Source of the DNA: an uncultured bacterium
GTDB taxonomy: Bacteria; SAR324; NAC60-12
Direction: 5' to 3'
Length of the DNA stretch: 44,568 nucleotides
NCBI GenBank assembly: GCA_964010765.1
Contig: CAXGMD010000017.1
Span: 1 to 44,568, forward strand
Positions 19,310 through 35,563 of the stretch are shown in pieces. The first letter of the stretch is position 1; each line of letters opens with the position of its first letter. The notes beneath the pieces were generated by a model, which was not told where the DNA came from, ran no database searches, and was given only the letters and a program-made list of their open reading frames with translations. The position numbers and the translations under genes are program-made.

Positions 19310-20725
19310 ATGTCTAGATCAATACTGAGCCTGTTTCTGCTCCTGCTGCTAGTTCCCGCTAGCTGGTCCCAGGAAGTCACTGGAGAAGGTGTAGGCTCCA
19401 CGAAAGAACAGGCAAAGAAAGAAGCCCTGGCCGACCTCTCTCAGAACATCTCGGTTGAGGTAAAATCTGTTCAAACCCAACTTTCTGAACTGATTGGAGA
19501 TAATTTACGCGAGGATGCTAGTAGTATGATTCAGCTGGAATCACGCCTTCCTATTCTTGGAGCAGAGAGTTTTGTGGTGGAAGATGTGGATTACTACTCT
19601 GCCTTGGCCCGTCTCTCAGCACAGGAGGTCAAACCGCTTTACCGCAATCAGCTTCAGCAAATGGAGAGAGAAATCCAGCAGGCCACCCAGCAACTGGAGA
19701 AGGCCGAGAGTAATGCAGAGCGGGAAACACTCCTTCAGGAAATTCTGGAAAAACTAGGGGATTTTAAGCGCCACCAAACCGTCTTGTTGGTCCTTGGGGA
19801 TAACGAGGTGCCCAAACTGCAAATCACAGAAACCGAGATCAAAAGTCAGCTTCGACAGGTTCAGAATGAACCAGATTCGCTGGAACAAGCTGCCAGAATC
19901 CTGACTAGGGATATGCAGGATCGAAGAGGGATCTATGTCTATCCATTTCGCACAGGAAGCTCACAAGAGATCACTCCTTTTGCTGCCGCCTTGAGAGGCC
20001 GCTTGCAGCAGCAGCTCAGCACGGTTCGCCAACCAGATCAGGCAACCCTCTGGCTCTACGGCACCTACTTGATTACAGATCAGGGATTGGAGCTCTCCGC
20101 CCACCTAACCCAGGCGAACAACCACCAAATCGAGCAATCCAGGTCACTGTTTTTGCCAAAGATGGCCTATCAGGGGTTGGAAGCCAAGCCGTCACAGATC
20201 AGTTTTGAAGAGCAGCTTCGCAATAATCCGGATCTTTTGCGCAAAAGAGATTTTCGAGTGTCTGTGCGCAGTAACAAGGGTTCTCAAGATCTGATGTTCC
20301 AGGAAGGAGATAGCCTGGAAATCTACGTTAAGCTCAACAAGCCAGGTTACTTCTACATTGTTGGACACACCTTTGCCGGAGAGGAGCCGTTTTCGTATTT
20401 GCTGGACTTGCAGGAAGAGGCAGATCCACCAAGGCGTTTCGTTCAATTTGTCAATGCAGATGACGTCAATCGATGGATCAGCCTGGGAGAGTTTGAAATT
20501 TATCCTCCGCTGGGTTTGGAGCATCTTCAGGTGATCGCTTCAAAAGAAGACTTGGTTCAGCGCTTGCCCGAATATTATTTTGATGCAGGATCAGAATTTT
20601 ATCTGGTTGGCAAAGATCCCACAGATGGTCTGACCAAAACCCGAGCAGCAAAGCGTCCAAAAAAGAAAAGCCCTGAAAATTACAGCGCAGAAGCCTTGCT
20701 CACTTATACTTCTGTACCACAGTAA
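19310..20725 (+). CDS. Secreted protein with N-terminal LPP20-like domain, coiled coil and C-terminal DUF4384-like domain
   Basis: Signal peptide, G-x-G...AKKEALADLSQNISVEV, C-terminal FQEGDSLEIYV...PPLGLEHLQVIAS. ATG 19310 preferred over TTG 19277. Confidence 0.7.
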   Translation: MSRSILSLFLLLLLVPASWSQEVTGEGVGSTKEQAKKEALADLSQNISVEVKSVQTQLSELIGDNLREDASSMIQLESRLPILGAESFVVEDVDYYSALARLSAQEVKPLYRNQLQQMEREIQQATQQLEKAESNAERETLLQEILEKLGDFKRHQTVLLVLGDNEVPKLQITETEIKSQLRQVQNEPDSLEQAARILTRDMQDRRGIYVYPFRTGSSQEITPFAAALRGRLQQQLSTVRQPDQATLWLYGTYLITDQGLELSAHLTQANNHQIEQSRSLFLPKMAYQGLEAKPSQISFEEQLRNNPDLLRKRDFRVSVRSNKGSQDLMFQEGDSLEIYVKLNKPGYFYIVGHTFAGEEPFSYLLDLQEEADPPRRFVQFVNADDVNRWISLGEFEIYPPLGLEHLQVIASKEDLVQRLPEYYFDAGSEFYLVGKDPTDGLTKTRAAKRPKKKSPENYSAEALLTYTSVPQ

Positions 20726-20748
20726 GTCTCAGAGAGAATTTCCTGATT

Positions 20749-20922
20749 TTATTCCAGAGGCGTTGCACAGAATCCACCGGAGGCCTGGGCTCCTGAGCCA
20801 AAAGCCAGTGGAGGAGGCGCTTGGAAGGGGTCAATCGGAGCACTGAAGAGCAAGTCGAGAAACAGCAACCCAAATAGTCCGAGCAATAGCACACCAATAG
20901 CGTGGGAACGTTGGAGAGTCAT
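20749..20922 (-). CDS. Unannotated 57-aa single-TM peptide with Gly/Pro-rich tail and one Cys near the C-terminus
   Basis: Hand translation MTLQRSHAIGVLLLGLFGLLFLDLLFSAPIDPFQAPPPLAFGSGAQASGGFCATPLE*. ATGA overlap with the yeeE stop and a GAGGAG SD 5 nt upstream. Confidence 0.8.
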   Translation of the reverse strand: MTLQRSHAIGVLLLGLFGLLFLDLLFSAPIDPFQAPPPLAFGSGAQASGGFCATPLE

Positions 20923-22070
20923 CTCTTCTCCTCAAGCAAGTGGTTGCGTAGTCGGACACCAAGCAGGGATCCGGCAAAGGCAGCGATGAACCAGACCCAG
21001 CCATGCAGGCTACCGGTCGAGATGCCACTGAAAAATGCGCCAACGTTGCAGCCATAGGCAAGGCGTGACGCATACCCCATCAGCAGAGCGGCTAGAGCAC
21101 CAACGATCCAAAGCCGAGTGGGAAGAGAAACCTGAGCAGCTAACGGTCCCTTCCAACGAGCAGCAATTCCAGCCCCTAACAATAAGCCGAAGTCTGTCAC
21201 TGATGTGATGTCTAGCAGCAAGCTTTGAGTCAAACGCTCAGCATTGCCGGCACCATTCCAGAAAGCAAAGCCCGCTAGTTCCATCCCCGACCAGTGTGCC
21301 AGCTTGGCACCCCATAAGCCTAGCCCATAAACCACTCCCCAGGGCTGTCCAGCCACCAACAGGTTGAGCACCGCCAATCCTGCCAGGCACAAAGCAGCAA
21401 TCCAGAGTCGACGCGGCAGGGTGCGCTCTGTCACGGGCATCCACTGTCGGAACCACCAGCCCAGCCCGGTCAGGATGGCCAGGGTCAGCAGGATGGCACC
21501 GGAGGTTCCCAGCCAATCGCTCAATGCGATGGGAGGCAACTGGCCCAGGGCATGCCACTCCGGCAGGTGCAGGGTTCCAAGGAAACTCCCGGCAATGAAG
21601 AAGGGCAGGGCCCAGAGACCCATCAGGTTGCCGCTGCCAGCGTTGACAAGGGTCCCGGAACCACAGCCCAGCACGACCTGCATTGCAGCCCCGAAGACAA
21701 AGGCCCCGAAGATCATCGCGACCCCCACTGGAGCTGTGGCTCCTATCAATTCACCCGCCGCTATTTCCAGTAGAAAGAGACTGGGCAGGGCCGTCAGCCC
21801 GATGGCCAGCAGTTGAGCCTGCAAGCCGTGGGTGTTGCGCTGTAGGATCGCTTGCCGCCAGGGACCTGCAAAGCCAAAACGCAGACCCTCCAGGGTGATG
21901 CCGAAGCCCAGCCCGATGGCCAGCAGTAGGCCTTGCCGGAGTCCAGCATAGATCGCCAGTACTAGGACCAGTAGCGTAGTTCCTATTCCAAGTAGGATAC
22001 GGAGTCGTCGTTGCCTCACATCATTGTTAGGGTCAGCAGCAGTTGTGGTGGTGGAACTCATCAGATTCAT
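20919..22070 (-). CDS. YeeE/YedE (TsuA-like) sulfur-compound transporter
   Basis: Multi-TM protein with two Cys motifs (VLGCGSG; AYGCNVGAFFSG). ATG 22070 lies 4 nt after the rhodanese stop. Confidence 0.88.
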   Translation of the reverse strand: MNLMSSTTTTAADPNNDVRQRRLRILLGIGTTLLVLVLAIYAGLRQGLLLAIGLGFGITLEGLRFGFAGPWRQAILQRNTHGLQAQLLAIGLTALPSLFLLEIAAGELIGATAPVGVAMIFGAFVFGAAMQVVLGCGSGTLVNAGSGNLMGLWALPFFIAGSFLGTLHLPEWHALGQLPPIALSDWLGTSGAILLTLAILTGLGWWFRQWMPVTERTLPRRLWIAALCLAGLAVLNLLVAGQPWGVVYGLGLWGAKLAHWSGMELAGFAFWNGAGNAERLTQSLLLDITSVTDFGLLLGAGIAARWKGPLAAQVSLPTRLWIVGALAALLMGYASRLAYGCNVGAFFSGISTGSLHGWVWFIAAFAGSLLGVRLRNHLLEEKR

Positions 22071-22074
22071 TGAC

Positions 22075-23052
22075 TCAGAAGGTATTGGCAAACCACTGCT
22101 TGGTGTTCAGCCAGGCCCACTTGAGGCGTCCTGGCACGTTGTCCATTGGCAGGCCAGCAGCAGACCACTCGACCATTGACTCCGGATAGAGCTTGACACC
22201 TGGCTGGCCAACCACTTCGCTCAGCACGAACCAGTTGGTGGCAGCCCAGTGTCCTGTGTTGCAGAAAGAGACAGTGACTTCTGCTTGGGTCAGGTCATTT
22301 TGCTGGGCCAGGGTCTGCAGTTGTTCTGGGGCTTCCAACAGAGGTCCTCCGGAACGAAACCACTGCTTGTTGTCGAAGTCCTCGGCTCCTGCGATTGTAC
22401 CGGGCTTAGCAGCAGCACCGTGCCATTTCTCACCAGCAAAGAAATCTGCGGGACGGGCATCGAGCAGCTTAGTATTTGTTTGCTTGAGTTGCTGTTCCAC
22501 GTCACTTGTGGAGGCCAGCCAGTCGGCTTGGATCGTGGCTGGATAGCTGCTGGGAGTCACCGTGGCGGTATCCTTAGAGATGGGCAGTCCTGCTTGTTTC
22601 CAGGCCAAGAAACCACCGTCAACAACAGCCAACTGTTGTAGTCCTGCGGTCTTGAGGGTCCAGTAGACTCGAGCCGCTGCACCGAAGTCACTGTAGGAAT
22701 CTCCTTTGTGCAGGACCACGGTCGGGGTTTCTGCATTCAAACCAAGTCCCTGGACGAGTGCGGTCAATTGGGCTTGTGGAAGGAACTTCCCTGGATTTTC
22801 AGCCGGTCCACGCCAGTTACCGTAAGGTGAAGAGAGTGCACCAGGGATATGACCGGCATTGTAGGAGCTATCTGGATCAAGCGCATTTGGTGGACGGATG
22901 TCAATGATGGTGACAGCGTCGGAGTGAGCTTGAAGTATTTGATTTAACTCATTGGCTGAGAGCAACGGCTTCCAGCCGGAGACCGAATTAGCAAAAGCGA
23001 AGCTACTAGCTAAAACCAGCAGTAAAGTAGAGAAAAGAGAGCGTATGTTCAT
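22075..23052 (-). CDS. Secreted tandem-domain rhodanese/sulfurtransferase, copy B
   Basis: Signal peptide (AFA), GHIPGA, AARVYW, LLDARP, active-site loop CNTGHWA and LYPESMVEWS. Confidence 0.9.
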   Translation of the reverse strand: MNIRSLFSTLLLVLASSFAFANSVSGWKPLLSANELNQILQAHSDAVTIIDIRPPNALDPDSSYNAGHIPGALSSPYGNWRGPAENPGKFLPQAQLTALVQGLGLNAETPTVVLHKGDSYSDFGAAARVYWTLKTAGLQQLAVVDGGFLAWKQAGLPISKDTATVTPSSYPATIQADWLASTSDVEQQLKQTNTKLLDARPADFFAGEKWHGAAAKPGTIAGAEDFDNKQWFRSGGPLLEAPEQLQTLAQQNDLTQAEVTVSFCNTGHWAATNWFVLSEVVGQPGVKLYPESMVEWSAAGLPMDNVPGRLKWAWLNTKQWFANTF

Positions 23053-23147
23053 GTTAGTTCTCAGTGAAAAAATCAAAAATAGACCAATTGATTATAGAAA
23101 AGTTATGTATGATTTGAAGGTAGGTAGCCATTAGCCTTCAATACTCC

Positions 23148-23741
23148 TTAAGAAGCCTGCTGAGACTGAATTTTCCTGACGCATTGATAGAGATTTTCTA
23201 ACTTGGAGTCATGAATTTGAGCCTTGCGAAGATACTGAATCGTTTGCTTCAGGTACTCAACACATGGACCCCGTTTTCCTTTGGCTTCCAGAATTCGTTT
23301 TCCTTTGGCTTCCACCTGCATTGTGGGGCAGACGTATTTGGGATGATCCAGTCTGACGACGAAGGCAATCGCTTCCAAGTTCCCTATCTCTGATTCAACA
23401 CGAACCCATTGTGGTTCATAGGCCTCTGTGATCATCTCCCTTTCCCAAATTTGGACCAGTTGGGTGTCCTTCAACTCCGGAGGAATCCGCAATGCCCGAC
23501 CAATACAGGACCCACCTGGTTCAAGTCCGAGGACTAATCCTGGAAATTCCTTGATTCCTCGATGCTCCGTACTCCAAAGACAAAAACTCCGATGGAATCC
23601 TTGAATTGTAGCCAGAATTGATTGATCAAAGGAAATTTCTGGATTCCACATCAAAGATCCGTAGGCAAAAATCCAGATTTCCTGGTCAGGAGGTCGCTGA
23701 TTCAGGATACTTTGGAGAGAGAAATTCACTGGAGTCACCAA
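23148..23741 (-). CDS. chaC: ChaC family glutathione-specific gamma-glutamylcyclotransferase
   Basis: WIFAYGSLMWNP, HRG..PGLVLGL and WEREM motifs. Start uncertain. Confidence 0.88.
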   Translation of the reverse strand: MVTPVNFSLQSILNQRPPDQEIWIFAYGSLMWNPEISFDQSILATIQGFHRSFCLWSTEHRGIKEFPGLVLGLEPGGSCIGRALRIPPELKDTQLVQIWEREMITEAYEPQWVRVESEIGNLEAIAFVVRLDHPKYVCPTMQVEAKGKRILEAKGKRGPCVEYLKQTIQYLRKAQIHDSKLENLYQCVRKIQSQQAS

Positions 23742-23891
23742 AAAAATTTATGAGTAAGATAGGTTTTTCAGCATTGTTGATCAGGTGCCTTTTGAGCAAA
23801 ATTTCTACCTTTGAAGGATACCTTAACTCCTGCTAAGTTGTCACTTTCGTTGGCTGAAAAAAAACTTTGCAGGAGTCTCCTTTTCGAGTGT

Positions 23892-24869
23892 TCAGTTGAA
23901 CTTAGATACGAGCCATTGCTTGGTAGACAACCAGGCCCACTCTAGGCGGTTGGGGACATTGTCCATTGGCAGATTGGCGGTGGACCATTCAACTAATGAT
24001 TCAGGATATAGTTTAACATTCTGCTTACCGGCGATTTCACTGAGCACAAACCAGTTGGTAGCAGCCCAGTGTCCTGTATTGCAGAAGGAAACAGTGATTT
24101 CAGCCTGGCCGAGCTTATTCTCCTGCACCAGATTCTGTAGTCGTTCCGGGGATTCGAGCAAGGGACCACCGGAGTGAAACCAGCGCTCATTATCGAAAGC
24201 CACGGCTCCAGCGATGGTTCCAGGTTTACTGGCAGCTGGATGCCAACTCAGGCCTTCGAAAAAGGAGTCGGGTCGGGCATCCAGTACCTGGAATCCAGGC
24301 TTGTTGAGGTATGCTTCGACCTCAGCTGTCTGTGCCAGCCAGTGAGGTTGGATTTGGGCAGGAAAGTCACTTGGCAGTGGAGTTTCCAACTCCGTCGAGA
24401 TCGGCAGACCCGACTGTTTCCAGGCCTGGAAGCCACCATTGAGGATTGCCAGGTTGGTCAATCCAGCGGTCTTGAGAGACCAGTAGACACGAGCTGCTGC
24501 GCCAAAGTCACTGTAGGAATCCCCACGGTGTACGACGACGACAGGGGTATCAGCCTCCGCCCCAAGTGCCTGGACGAGCCAGGTCAGCTTGTCCTGGGTG
24601 ATGAACTTGCCAGGATTGTCGGGTTGCCCACGCCAAGTCGCATAGGGGGAAGAGATCGCACCAGGGATGTGCCCCGCATTGTAGGAGGCGTCCGGTTCCT
24701 TGGCATCTAGGGCCCGGATGTCAACGACAGTTGCGGCAAAGGGATCTTCTTCGAGAAGTTCATGCAACTTGTCTACGGAGAGGAGAGGCTTCCAGTTGGA
24801 AAGTTCACTGGCGAAAGTTACGCTGGTAATCAAGGTGAGCAGTCCGATGAGCAAAAGACGCAGTTTCAT
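23892..24869 (-). CDS. Secreted tandem-domain rhodanese/sulfurtransferase, copy A
   Basis: Signal peptide (TFA), GHIPGA, CNTGHWA and LYPESLVEWS. AGGAG SD. Clear paralog of 22075..23052. Confidence 0.9.
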   Translation of the reverse strand: MKLRLLLIGLLTLITSVTFASELSNWKPLLSVDKLHELLEEDPFAATVVDIRALDAKEPDASYNAGHIPGAISSPYATWRGQPDNPGKFITQDKLTWLVQALGAEADTPVVVVHRGDSYSDFGAAARVYWSLKTAGLTNLAILNGGFQAWKQSGLPISTELETPLPSDFPAQIQPHWLAQTAEVEAYLNKPGFQVLDARPDSFFEGLSWHPAASKPGTIAGAVAFDNERWFHSGGPLLESPERLQNLVQENKLGQAEITVSFCNTGHWAATNWFVLSEIAGKQNVKLYPESLVEWSTANLPMDNVPNRLEWAWLSTKQWLVSKFN

Positions 24870-25098
24870 CAGTTTTCTCCTGGAGAGAAGTTGGCAAAGC
24901 AGGGCAAAACGATGGCCCAGAACATCAGCAAATGTGGAGAAGCTTTCCCCAGTGGGGAACGTTCTCGGTCAACGAAAACAACAGGCGAGGAGCGTTTTGG
25001 AGAGGAACCTGCGGGAGGCTCTAGAGCAAACGCACTCGCGAAAAATTCAGTGAATGATCAGAATCGGGAAACGAATCAGGAATGTGTGAACAGAGTGT

Positions 25099-25224
25099 TC
25101 AGCAACAGCAGGTAGGACAGCAACAGCAGGGAGTAACAGAGGCAACGACGGCAGCAGTCAGAGAAGTCTGGGAAAGGCTCGAACGCCCGGAGCGGAAAAA
25201 CGGTATATAGGGTAGAGAGTTCAT
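25099..25224 (-). promoter_or_regulatory. Polycysteine leader micro-ORF 2 (41 aa)
   Basis: Hand translation MNSLPYIPFFRSGRSSLSQTSLTAAVVASVTPCCCCPTCCC*. Seven of the last nine codons are TGY, followed by TGA. Confidence 0.75.
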
Positions 25225-25308
25225 CTTTCTATCTGATTCGAAAAAGTTTTTGGAGAAATTGGCGCTAGGGCCAAGGATGCGGCTAGGCCGCTGTGAAGAG
25301 GACCTGTA

Positions 25309-25386
25309 TCAACAACAGGTCAAACGACAACAACAGTAACAATCGGCTAGGGTACCGAATCGAATGTCTTTGCATGAGAAAGGCAT
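25309..25386 (-). promoter_or_regulatory. Polycysteine leader micro-ORF 1 (25 aa)
   Basis: Hand translation MPFSCKDIRFGTLADCYCCCRLTCC*. Seven Cys, six of them in the last ten codons, followed by TGA. Confidence 0.72.
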
Positions 25387-25412
25387 TACTGTTGTCCGAA
25401 AAGAAGGAATTT

Positions 25413-25436
25413 AAAAAATTCGATATCGAAGTTTTT
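25413..25436. promoter_or_regulatory. Near-perfect 24-bp palindrome, candidate operator
   Basis: AAAAA-A-TTCGATATCGAA-G-TTTTT in the divergent promoter region, 26 nt upstream of leader ORF 1. Confidence 0.4.
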
Positions 25437-25625
25437 CGTAGGCCGAGCACAAAGGCAAGCATTTTTTGCAGGTGCGAGAATACTTAGGGTAACGTGTCAT
25501 CGGTTGCCGGCTTTTTTCACCAATCTTTCTCAGGTGTTGAGAATGGTTTGATCTTCTACTGACTATTATCGAAGATTAGAAGAAATCTGGTCTTTCATCT
25601 CAACCACACATGCTTTGGAGGAAAC

Positions 25626-26618
25626 ATGCCCTATGATGCCGCTGATAACCGTTACGAATCTGCTCACTATCGTCGCTGTGGGAAATCTGGACTACACTTG
25701 CCCGAGGTGTCCCTAGGGCTTTGGTACAATTTTGGTGGAGTCGATCCTCTGGAAAATATGCGAGAGATGCTCCGACGGTCTTTTGACCTCGGGATTACGC
25801 ACTTTGATCTTGCCAACAATTATGGTCCCCCTCCTGGTTCGGCTGAAACCAATTTCGGGCGGATCTTTGCCGAGGACTTCAAGCCCTATCGCGATGAATT
25901 GGTGATTTCCAGTAAAGCTGGCTACCACATGTGGCCTGGGCCCTACGGAGAATGGGGCTCTCGCAAGTACCTGGTGGCAAGCTGCGACCAGAGCCTCAAA
26001 CGGGTGGGACTCGACTATGTAGACATTTTCTACAGCCATCGGCCCGACCCGAATACCCCCTTGGAAGAGACGATGGGAGCGCTGGACTACATCGTTCGTA
26101 GCGGACGAGCGCTCTATGCTGGTATCTCAACCTATTCCCCAGAGCAGACACGCGAAGCTTCACGCCTCCTGAGAGAATTGGGAACTCCCTGTTTAATTCA
26201 TCAGCCACGCTACAACATGTTTGATCGTTGGATCGAAGATGGCCTGCTTGATGTACTCAAGGACGAAGGGATTGGCTGCATTGCGTTCTCACCTCTTTGC
26301 CAGGGAATTCTGACCAACAAGTACCTATCTGAAGACTGGAGTGGCACCCGTGCTGATAAACTGAAGAGCGCTTTCCACTGGGGTGATGAAGTGACTCAGA
26401 AGCGCATTGCGCGGGTACGTGAACTACAGAAGATGGCCGATGAGCGTGGACAGACAATGGCTCAACTCGCGATCGCTTGGGTACTGCGTCAGCCACAGAT
26501 GACCTCGGCGCTGATTGGTGCCAGCAAGGTCTCACAAATCGAAGATGCTGTGGGTGCACTCAGCAACACGCAGCTTAGCGAAGAAGAACTATCCAGAATC
26601 GAAACTATTCTCGGTTAG
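25626..26618 (+). CDS. mgrA: Aldo/keto reductase, L-glyceraldehyde-3-phosphate reductase (YghZ/MgrA) family
   Basis: SLGLWYNFG, FDLANNYGPPPGSAE, SKAGYHMWPGPYGEWGSRKY and HQPRY motifs. Confidence 0.9.
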   Translation: MPYDAADNRYESAHYRRCGKSGLHLPEVSLGLWYNFGGVDPLENMREMLRRSFDLGITHFDLANNYGPPPGSAETNFGRIFAEDFKPYRDELVISSKAGYHMWPGPYGEWGSRKYLVASCDQSLKRVGLDYVDIFYSHRPDPNTPLEETMGALDYIVRSGRALYAGISTYSPEQTREASRLLRELGTPCLIHQPRYNMFDRWIEDGLLDVLKDEGIGCIAFSPLCQGILTNKYLSEDWSGTRADKLKSAFHWGDEVTQKRIARVRELQKMADERGQTMAQLAIAWVLRQPQMTSALIGASKVSQIEDAVGALSNTQLSEEELSRIETILG

Positions 26619-35066: not shown

Positions 35067-35258
35067 AAATTCTCCTGATTTTTCAATATACTAGGGATCG
35101 AAAGAGAGACCAATCGCAGTGCATCGTGGAAAGGTAGCCTTGGGACGAACGACCAGACAAAGGTTGGAGGAGGTGTTGCGTCAGAATGGTGGCTGTTAGG
35201 CAGGCAGCGAATGGAATCAAGGATTGCAGGTTGTTTCCTGAGAGGGGATTGGCGGAAG

Positions 35259-35281
35259 AACGAACCCTCTGTGGGCTCGTT
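35259..35281 (-). terminator. Hairpin 15 nt after the rpsO stop
   Basis: Minus-strand AACGAGCCC-ACAGA-GGGTTCGTT with a weak pyrimidine tail. Confidence 0.45.
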
Positions 35282-35296
35282 CTAGTAGGTGGCTAT

Positions 35297-35563
35297 TTAT
35301 CTGCGGATGCCCAGCTTTTGGATAATTTCCTGGTAGCGATCCACGTTTTCCGCCTTGAGGTAGTTAAGAAAGTTGCGTCGTCGACCAACGAGGCGCAACA
35401 GTCCACGACGAGAGTGGAAGTCTTTTGGTTGTTGCTTGAAATGATCAGTTAGGTAGACGATTCGGGCTGTCAGCAGGGCAATCTGAACTTCTGTTGAGCC
35501 ACTGTCGTGCTCATTCTTGCCATAGGTGCGAATCAGTTCATTTTTCTGTTCCTTGGTCAACAT
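35297..35563 (-). CDS. rpsO: 30S ribosomal protein S15
   Basis: DSGSTEVQIALLT and KDFHSRRGL motifs. Confidence 0.98.
   Translation of the reverse strand: MLTKEQKNELIRTYGKNEHDSGSTEVQIALLTARIVYLTDHFKQQPKDFHSRRGLLRLVGRRRNFLNYLKAENVDRYQEIIQKLGIRR

Follow-up and report, generated by a model that had tools for sequence, protein, structure and literature searches.

In bacterial sulfur metabolism, the periplasmic carrier of the Sox system, SoxY, has a C-terminal Gly-Gly-Cys-Gly-Gly arm. Membrane transporters and oxidases can have small single-helix subunits, such as KdpF, AcrZ and CydX, which are shorter than 100 amino acids and whose genes lie in the same operon as those of the complex to which they bind; to our knowledge, none of the subunits of this type has a conserved extracytoplasmic cysteine arm. 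In the transporter TsuA (YeeE), the order of the relay cysteines from the periplasm to the cytoplasm is C293, C91 and C22, and in E. coli TsuA the arginine provides the main positive charge within the periplasmic funnel, as given in the available sections of PMC7449682. The 2024 study of SoxT, in the portion available, poses the question of how YeeE/SoxT-type transporters receive sulfur from the periplasmic side and which chemical form crosses the membrane (PMC11582611). The same source includes a 56-aa single-helix membrane protein, Hden_0678, encoded near soxT1A in Hyphomicrobium denitrificans, to which it assigns no function (PMC11582611).

The present study concerns a short reading frame that ends a group of genes for a YeeE-like transporter and exported rhodaneses in the DNA of an uncultured bacterium. 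The whole stretch analysed, 44,568 nucleotides long, is referred to below as the window. The original prediction described this frame as a small membrane peptide with a tail cysteine, which might shuttle persulfide between the rhodaneses and YeeE. The features of the locus are collected in Table 1.

Table 1. Features of the rhodanese–YeeE–peptide locus in the window
Feature	Coordinates	Strand	Details
Small-subunit gene	20749..20922	(-)	57 aa; stop codon included in the span
Pro/Gly/Ala-rich tail, residues 27-57, predicted periplasmic	20752..20844	(-)	GSG motif and invariant Cys52
Predicted transmembrane helix, approximately residues 8-26	20845..20901	(-)	Contains invariant Asp23, codon 20854..20856
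ATGA, yeeE stop overlapping the peptide start	20919..20922	(-)	Putative translational coupling
Shine-Dalgarno GAGGAG	20928..20933	(-)	5 nt ahead of the ATG, within the yeeE 3' end
YeeE-like transporter, distinct subfamily	20919..22091	(-)	PF04143 (Sulf_transp), E 1.8e-41
Exported two-domain rhodanese, directly upstream of yeeE	22075..23076	(-)	PF00581; loop CNTGHW
ChaC-like gene, between the two rhodaneses	23148..23741	(-)	PF04752
Second exported rhodanese paralog	23892..24869	(-)	PF00581; same CNTGHW loop

The 57-aa gene and its family

The peptide encoded in the window begins with a basic N-terminus, continues with a hydrophobic stretch at about residues 8-26 and ends with a Pro/Gly/Ala-rich tail, where its sole cysteine, Cys52, is located (codon 20767..20769). 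This layout agrees with the description in the original prediction, namely one transmembrane helix followed by a Pro/Gly-rich tail with the only Cys. The overlap of the frame with the yeeE stop codon and the GAGGAG ribosome-binding motif, which were also part of that description, were both located where they had been placed; the ATG of the peptide occupies positions 20922..20920 and the TGA of yeeE positions 20921..20919. The scan of the region 20400-25700 for promoters and terminators was uninformative, because the number of promoter-like sites, three, was close to the expected 2.7, and no terminator was found 3' of the peptide gene. No Rfam family matched anywhere in the window at the gathering score.

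An alignment search with YeeE, limited to one genome per species, revealed 585 relatives, and the best 80 of them were examined. According to the record titles, these loci belong to Rhodobacterales (many of them), Stappiaceae, Salinarimonadaceae, Hoeflea, Granulosicoccus and Pseudohongiella, together with three 'Deltaproteobacteria' MAGs, which are the nearest to the window (68-84% YeeE identity), and one Limisphaerales MAG. A match to the peptide profile was found directly 3' of yeeE and on the same strand in all of these best 80 loci of the 585, as well as in the window. The E-values of these matches in the 80 loci ranged from 4e-27 to 4e-12, and all other matches had E-values of at least 3.1.

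The arrangement of the two genes is tight. Among the 75 loci where they are separate, 62 have a 4-nt overlap between the start of the peptide gene and the yeeE stop and four have a 1-nt overlap, and in the remaining nine the start lies 1-14 nt downstream of the stop. Of the same 75 peptide genes, 70 begin with ATG, and 61 are preceded by one of the motifs GGAG, GAGG or AGGA, ending at a distance of 3-12 nt from the start. As judged from these sequence signals, translation of the peptide together with YeeE by stop/start coupling is strongly supported. At five of the 80 loci (L012, L014, L018, L032, L046; Pseudohongiella-type) the peptide and YeeE form an in-frame fusion, in which no stop codon separates the two and the YeeE sequence passes through a linker of about 20-30 aa into the helix and the Cys tail.

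The word-indexed protein search found 27 close homologs, 24 of which retain the whole tail with its Cys at 77-95% identity. In the other three (P0024, P0026 and P0027) the tail is frame-shifted and the Cys is gone; these sequences may represent assembly errors or decayed copies. More distant relatives were found by a HMMER scan of 1.84 billion representatives, which gave 18 proteins at E<=1e-3. The distant matches, 54-101 aa in length, share 38-54% identity and are aligned across both the helix and the tail, and all 20 aligned sequences of this set have R5, D23, P36, A40, S43, G44 and C52 in common.

The comparison of the unfused copies from the yeeE loci gave the same picture. Asp23, Ser43 and Cys52 do not vary among the 76 aligned copies; in all of them the Cys follows the Ser at a distance of nine residues and the N-terminal segment has a net charge of +1 to +3, and 74 of the 76 contain a single Cys. 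The residue that precedes the Cys is Phe in 39 copies and His in 37. When the fused copies are included, Cys is present in the tail at all 80 loci and in the window, so the tail cysteine on which the original prediction turned proved to be conserved, and at a fixed distance from Ser43. The family can be described by a length of 54-68 aa, a basic N-terminus, Asp in the helix, an Asn/Asp-Pro-Tyr/Phe motif, GSG, Cys nine residues after Ser and the position of the gene directly 3' of a YeeE gene of the subfamily found in the window; the window copy has every one of these traits. The peptide motif is conserved over Alpha- and Gammaproteobacteria and the lineage of the window, at identities to the window copy down to 30%.

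The mode of selection was assessed with 24 pairs, hand-chosen as close relatives. Their dN/dS values lie between 0.04 and 0.48, and the pooled value is 0.17 (pS 0.42, pN 0.10). Together with the conserved Shine-Dalgarno motif, the ATGA coupling and the in-frame fusions to YeeE, this suggests that the frame is translated, as had been supposed from the beginning. An ORF present by chance in the 3' part of yeeE, kept only through conservation of the DNA, might be suspected from the number of ORFs in the window (192 of at least 60 aa) and from the three close relatives with frame-shifted tails. Against it stand the excess of pS, which is far above pN, the conservation of the motif down to the lowest peptide identity and the five fusions. 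Since short ORFs are so common in the window, a 57-codon ORF alone carries little weight, and the case for a gene therefore rests on comparison, that is, on the 80/80 loci, purifying selection and the five natural fusions. The linkage, the fusions and the dN/dS value refute the chance-ORF explanation, the probability of which is practically nil, and it is virtually certain that the 57-aa ORF is a real gene.

The family is poorly represented in annotation. A profile search gave 319 peptide clusters at E<=1e-3; among the 120 of them that were listed, the source names are only hypothetical, conserved hypothetical or uncharacterized, with one exception, and a Pfam domain is present in none of these 120. 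The exception is one JGI label, ribosomal protein L11 methylase PrmA, which looks mis-annotated. The window peptide sits in one cluster together with unrelated proteins of about 370 aa, and in at least one plasmid record (H6) the peptide gene was left unannotated. The Pfam search with the window peptide gave 0 families at E<=0.01. In NCBIfam, the search with the window peptide and eight related copies gave no family at E<=1 for the former and for six of the latter, and the remaining two copies gave chance-level E-values of 0.12 and 0.16 with unrelated families, far under the cut-offs. The ESM Atlas returned only clusters named 'hypothetical protein' with no Pfam. The literature found on YeeE/TsuA, thiosulfate and periplasmic rhodaneses does not describe a small Cys peptide beside YeeE, and the available sections of PMC13047784, PMC3390766 and PMC11034169 add nothing on such a peptide.

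The rhodanese and the YeeE-like transporter

A rhodanese ortholog is located immediately upstream of yeeE at 77 of the 80 loci. Its active-site Cys is retained in all 77 cases and the full CNTGHW loop in 75; its relatives in the PDB are tandem-domain sulfurtransferases. The three loci lacking an upstream rhodanese are L015, L039 and L059, where the upstream sequence present amounts to 256 nt, 986 nt and 4.5 kb, respectively; no rhodanese Pfam match was found in the 4.5 kb upstream at L059. Both rhodaneses of the window have N-termini resembling signal peptides, as judged by eye, and with the two PF00581 matches this bears out the earlier claim that exported rhodaneses are encoded near yeeE. 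The ChaC-like gene, found at only one of the 80 loci (L002), is a lineage-specific addition. In the wider context, covered by Pfam searches with 95 of 152 ORFs from 13 loci, nothing beyond the rhodanese, YeeE and the peptide is conserved.

A search in the reverse direction, starting from the peptide, led to the same neighbourhood. The tblastn search of 72,556 plasmids gave eight records, and in all eight the match lies beside YeeE/YedE; in six it overlaps the annotated YeeE/YedE gene and in two YeeE/YedE is the adjacent gene. Three of the plasmid regions were inspected, and each contains a rhodanese or sulfurtransferase, YeeE/YedE and a hypothetical protein in this order. Thus the homologs of the peptide are linked to yeeE, at all 80 loci examined and in all eight plasmid matches, and, at 77 of the 80 loci, to the rhodanese, as the original prediction implied. 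It is strongly supported that the peptide completes a compact three-part module, inherited together, which also includes an exported rhodanese and a YeeE-like transporter.

The active-site loop of the rhodaneses deserves attention. In canonical thiosulfate rhodaneses this loop contains basic residues. The CNTGHW loop contains no basic residue, and thiosulfate may therefore not be the donor of the rhodanese of the module.

The original identification of the gene upstream of the peptide as yeeE was confirmed by the highly significant match to the Sulf_transp family (Table 1). Its likely start is Met11 (position 22061), which gives a protein of 380 aa, and the homologs are also 380 aa long. The structural model of a relative, L018, matches the structure 6LEO with a target TM-score of 0.75, that is, it has the YeeE fold. 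Cys133 and Cys338 of the window YeeE, both invariant, are the counterparts of Cys91 and Cys293 of S. thermophila YeeE (St). The position of St Cys22 is occupied by Gly, within the motif Arg-Phe-Gly-Phe-Ala-Gly-Pro-Trp-Arg, according to the profile alignment, and the position of St Arg215 by Val, within the motif Gly-Gln-Pro-Trp-Gly-Val-Val-Tyr-Gly, where the confidence of the alignment is moderate.

The comparison with NCBIfam models also sets this protein apart. The window YeeE scored 38.8 bits with the TsuA model against a cut-off of 400, and its best partial match, YedE/FdhT, reached 80.9 bits against a cut-off of 350. The best partial matches are linked to selenium (YedE/FdhT, ExtH), and all are under their cut-offs. 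The labels 'YeeE/YedE thiosulfate transporter' given to the peptide-linked YeeE subfamily are probably too specific. The Pfam scan, which covered at least 40 of the 41 non-overlapping ORFs of at least 60 aa, including 35186-35452 on the (+) strand, and the 57-aa peptide, found no TusA/YeeD-like family in the window; the statement of the original prediction that YeeD/TsuB is absent from it holds for the ORFs scanned.

These features bear on the direction of transport. The same complex of YeeE and the peptide could work outwards, with the periplasmic rhodanese as the recipient of sulfane sulfur or selenium, for instance for cyanide detoxification or for the benefit of a periplasmic acceptor. Such a role would be consistent with the loss of the cytoplasmic Cys22 and the periplasmic Arg215, which TsuA uses in thiosulfate uptake, with the low score against the TsuA model and with the fact that no cytoplasmic YeeD/TusA partner is encoded nearby. 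However, the characterised YeeE-type proteins dealt with in the available parts of PMC7449682, PMC11073785 and PMC11582611 all act in uptake, and the neighbourhood, the flanks of which are not conserved, does not indicate any cytoplasmic sulfur donor. Outward transport is thus regarded as improbable.

Predicted docking on YeeE and the proposed role of Cys52

The complex model of the peptide with YeeE gave an ipSAE of 0.77 (0.76, 0.77 and 0.81 in the individual runs) against 0.00 for the best of three controls. In the benchmark, 116 of 157 solved complexes attained the ipSAE mark, as did two of 215 mismatched pairs; these counts are only rough ones, because own alignments were fed to the complex model. 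The runs share at least 96% of contacts, and the pLDDT of the partner is at least 77. The matches in the PDB comprise YeeE alone and YeeE-YeeD only, and no complex of YeeE with a small membrane peptide, so the score is unlikely to be a recall of a solved complex. In the model, the peptide helix touches YeeE residues 141-152, 250-257 and 280-298, and invariant Asp23 is placed against invariant Lys253 of YeeE with an expected error of 1.5 Å. Tail residues 35-56 all belong to the modelled interface, which on the side of YeeE also takes in residues 235-245 and 332-346, including Tyr-Gly-Cys338.

The natural fusion L018 (439 aa) was modelled with AlphaFold2, with a mean pLDDT of 88.5 and a pTM of 0.88. 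The added helix, residues 389-410, has block pLDDT values of about 86-88. In the fused tail the block values fall to 66, 47 and 44, and residues 420-426 and 431-439 are below 50. Because of this low pLDDT, the docking of the helix is indicated by two methods and the position of the tail by one predictor; a mobile arm would fit the results of both. It is highly likely, on the evidence of the models and with the natural fusions in support, that the peptide is a bound subunit of YeeE, and the association with YeeE that the original prediction assumed thus gained support from the complex model, including its controls.

The orientation of the peptide can be approached through the fusions. The C-terminus of YeeE is cytoplasmic, as evidenced in the available text of PMC11073785 by natural YeeE-YeeD fusions and by a structure with YeeD on the cytoplasmic face. 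The basic N-terminus of the peptide and its fusion to the cytoplasmic C-terminus of YeeE both argue for an N-in orientation, which would put the tail in the periplasm. The models, taken with the charge pattern and the fusions, suggest a cytoplasmic N-terminus and a tenth transmembrane helix docked on YeeE. The uncharged tail would then occupy the periplasmic face, above or inside the outer YeeE funnel, close to Cys338.

The hydrophobic segment might also be a cleavable signal peptide, and in this case cleavage would release into the periplasm a soluble mature product of some 30 aa containing one Cys, either a free carrier or the precursor of a modified peptide. The basic N-terminus and hydrophobic core do resemble those of a signal peptide, and a site obeying the -3/-1 rule (Ala-x-Ala-like) is found 3-6 residues past Asp23 in 64 of the 76 copies. 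Yet the five natural fusions carry this segment internally as an extra helix, and four of the five fused copies break the -3/-1 rule at the site examined, as read from the sequences. In addition, two predictors confidently place the helix against YeeE, where the invariant Asp23 within it is paired with the invariant Lys253 in the model. Cleavage is consequently considered very improbable.

A bound peptide might be a structural or gating subunit, whose helix stabilises YeeE and whose tail plugs or lines the periplasmic funnel. Cys52 would not be a sulfur carrier in that case; it could form a regulatory disulfide with Cys338 or, in the His-Cys variants, bind a metal together with the neighbouring His. 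The modelled position of the tail, which touches YeeE residues 336-338, is compatible with this, as is the Cys22-Cys91 disulfide formed by purified St YeeE according to the available part of PMC7449682. Another argument comes from the alternation of His and Phe ahead of the Cys. At position 109 of YeeE, which belongs to the predicted interface, 31 of the 37 modules of the His type have His, and none of the 39 of the Phe type does; this column shows the highest covariation with peptide residue 51, its mutual information being 0.90 bit and that of the second-ranking column 0.57. However, the His/His association corresponds to only 2-3 independent contrasts on the tree and has no statistical weight; as evidence of a contact, the covariation at position 109 was set aside for this reason and is kept as a lead. 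Moreover, the His is variable while the Cys is invariant, and the constant pairing with an exported rhodanese is better explained by a hand-over of sulfur. A purely structural or gating role is accordingly judged unlikely.

The preferred reading is that of a small YeeE-bound subunit whose Cys52 takes part in the hand-over of sulfur, and the chances of this reading as a whole are about even. According to this scheme, the exported rhodanese would accept sulfane sulfur at its active-site Cys from a donor in the periplasm, for which thiosulfate is an example, and would then transfer it to Cys52 on the flexible tail. The sulfur would then pass inwards from Cys52 to Cys338 of YeeE, the counterpart of TsuA Cys293 and thus the outermost relay cysteine, and further to Cys133. 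The peptide would represent a periplasmic, membrane-anchored mirror of the cytoplasmic 'fourth cysteine' of YeeD/TsuB, serving a YeeE that has lost the cytoplasmic cysteine and the anion-binding arginine. The element carried may be sulfur or selenium. That Cys52 acts in the hand-over of either element in the proposed way is plausible, although its probability falls slightly below one half. A covalent 'bucket brigade' of sulfur across the inner membrane, with the rhodanese loading the Cys52 arm and YeeE rebuilt for persulfide and not for thiosulfate, is a more tentative and rather doubtful extension of this scheme. As for the membrane-tethered persulfide shuttle of the original prediction, its outline stood, with an undescribed family, a conserved Cys, linkage to yeeE and rhodanese and modelled binding to YeeE; the persulfide chemistry is something that we infer.

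If true, the scheme would provide the first defined entry device for protein-bound periplasmic sulfur into YeeE/SoxT-type proteins. The three-gene module is a concrete and testable candidate for the missing step of sulfur entry. It pairs a subunit of 54-68 aa, with an invariant Cys predicted to face outwards, with a YeeE lacking two residues required by TsuA, and is found in marine Rhodobacterales, Stappiaceae, Salinarimonadaceae, Granulosicoccus, Pseudohongiella and the 'Deltaproteobacteria' lineage of the window.

Comparison with known systems

The transporter of the module shares with TsuA/YeeE proteins the Sulf_transp domain and the fold, and differs from them in lacking the complete set of three cysteines with Arg and in its score below the TsuA cut-off. 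The likeness of the peptide to KdpF, AcrZ and CydX is one of kind only, that of a small single-helix subunit, and implies no homology.

Like YeeD/TsuB, as the latter is presented in the available text of PMC11073785, the peptide is small, is encoded by the side of yeeE and is sometimes fused to the YeeE C-terminus; this YeeD-type gene arrangement was found in the form of adjacency to yeeE at 80/80 loci and of fusion at 5/80. Each has one conserved Cys, which in YeeD/TsuB is the proposed 'fourth cysteine' extending the cysteine line of YeeE (PMC11073785, same sections). The two differ in that YeeD, as far as the source was available, is a soluble cytoplasmic protein of the TusA fold that binds at the cytoplasmic exit, whereas the peptide is single-pass with a Cys tail predicted to be periplasmic. 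Besides, the peptide gives no match to a TusA/SirA-like domain, and its YeeE lacks the cytoplasmic Cys22.

With SoxY, the peptide shares a single carrier Cys (a putative one in the peptide) close to the C-terminal end of a periplasmic segment that is rich in Gly and probably flexible. Unlike SoxY, it has no SoxY domain or SoxZ partner and is anchored in the membrane. The motifs differ as well, the tail of the peptide having GSG, eight residues and then Cys after Phe or His. No match to a Sox-family Pfam entry was found among the neighbours scanned, which included the window ORFs and a sample of ORFs from 13 loci. The likeness to YeeD/TsuB and SoxY would be a functional analogy only, and the peptide belongs to neither family.

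Judging by the available part of PMC11582611, Hden_0678 is the nearest published case found. It resembles the peptide in size, in its predicted N-in single helix and in the position of its gene beside that of a YeeE-like transporter. The two were compared by description only, and they differ in that Hden_0678 is reported to contain no cysteine (PMC11582611). To summarise the comparison, a YeeE with a cysteine partner is known, and the peptide family is new, being described neither in Pfam and NCBIfam nor in the literature found. What distinguishes the case of the window, according to the models, is that the cysteine partner appears to be membrane-anchored and periplasmic.

Covariation with the transporter and the reading frame of the peptide tail

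A correspondence was observed between residue 109 of YeeE (window numbering, 380 aa) and residue 51 of the peptide, the position preceding its Cys. Where residue 51 is His, YeeE 109 is also His in 31 of 37 modules; where it is Phe, His is found at YeeE 109 in none of 39, both counts reflecting only two to three independent changes on the tree. YeeE residue 109 lies within the predicted YeeE–peptide interface.

The tails of three of the 27 close relatives of the peptide (P0024, P0026 and P0027) agree with an alternative frame of the window and, because they follow that frame, lack the Cys of the tail. The switch looks as if one base had been lost or gained within the Pro-rich stretch, and these three may represent assembly errors or decayed copies.

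Phylogeny of YeeE and distribution of the module

The topology of the YeeE tree is discordant with taxonomy, as seen for loci L004, L073, L039, L059 and L012 among the best 80 of 585 related YeeE loci. Granulosicoccus sequences are nested within Alphaproteobacteria, and the nearest neighbour of a Limisphaerales MAG in the tree is a Gemmobacter MAG. The Pseudohongiella-type in-frame YeeE–peptide fusion is present on a contig whose record title names a Klebsiella MAG, and large plasmids also carry the module (matches H1–H8 of the peptide-first search). Together, these observations suggest horizontal transfer and/or mis-binned contigs. The 90% cluster that includes the 57-aa peptide of the window also contains unrelated zinc-finger-type proteins of Pseudophaeobacter (about 336–383 aa), which looks like a clustering artefact.

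The rhodaneses and their upstream neighbourhood

Only in the window and in locus L002 is the core module preceded by a ChaC-like gene, whose family degrades glutathione, and by a second paralog of the rhodanese, an arrangement that gives a hint of a connection with glutathione in this lineage. The intergenic gap of the window demonstrated no Rfam matches and no ORFs with a Pfam match, and is a possible regulatory region. In several alphaproteobacterial and Granulosicoccus loci, ORFs of about 94–168 aa adjoin the 5′ side of the rhodanese gene.

Coordinates of the alternative frame, the rhodaneses and the upstream features
Feature	Locus	Positions (strand)	Remark
Alternative-frame ORF	window	20700..20897 (-)	
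Rhodanese	window	22075..23076 (-)	
Rhodanese	window	23892..24869 (-)	
ChaC-like gene and second rhodanese	window	23148..24869 (-)	
ChaC-like gene and second rhodanese	L002	4336..4974	
Intergenic gap	window	24870..25625	756 nt, between divergent rhodanese and aldo/keto-reductase genes
ORF without Pfam match	L004	4151..4657	just upstream of rhodanese
ORF without Pfam match	L005	4591..5061	just upstream of rhodanese
ORF without Pfam match	L026	4775..5059	just upstream of rhodanese
ORF without Pfam match	L076	4638..4967	just upstream of rhodanese

Both window rhodaneses possess the active-site loop CNTGHW, which has no basic residue. Since the loops of canonical thiosulfate rhodaneses, unlike this one, do contain basic residues, the loop sequence implies that the sulfur donor of the window enzymes may be other than thiosulfate.
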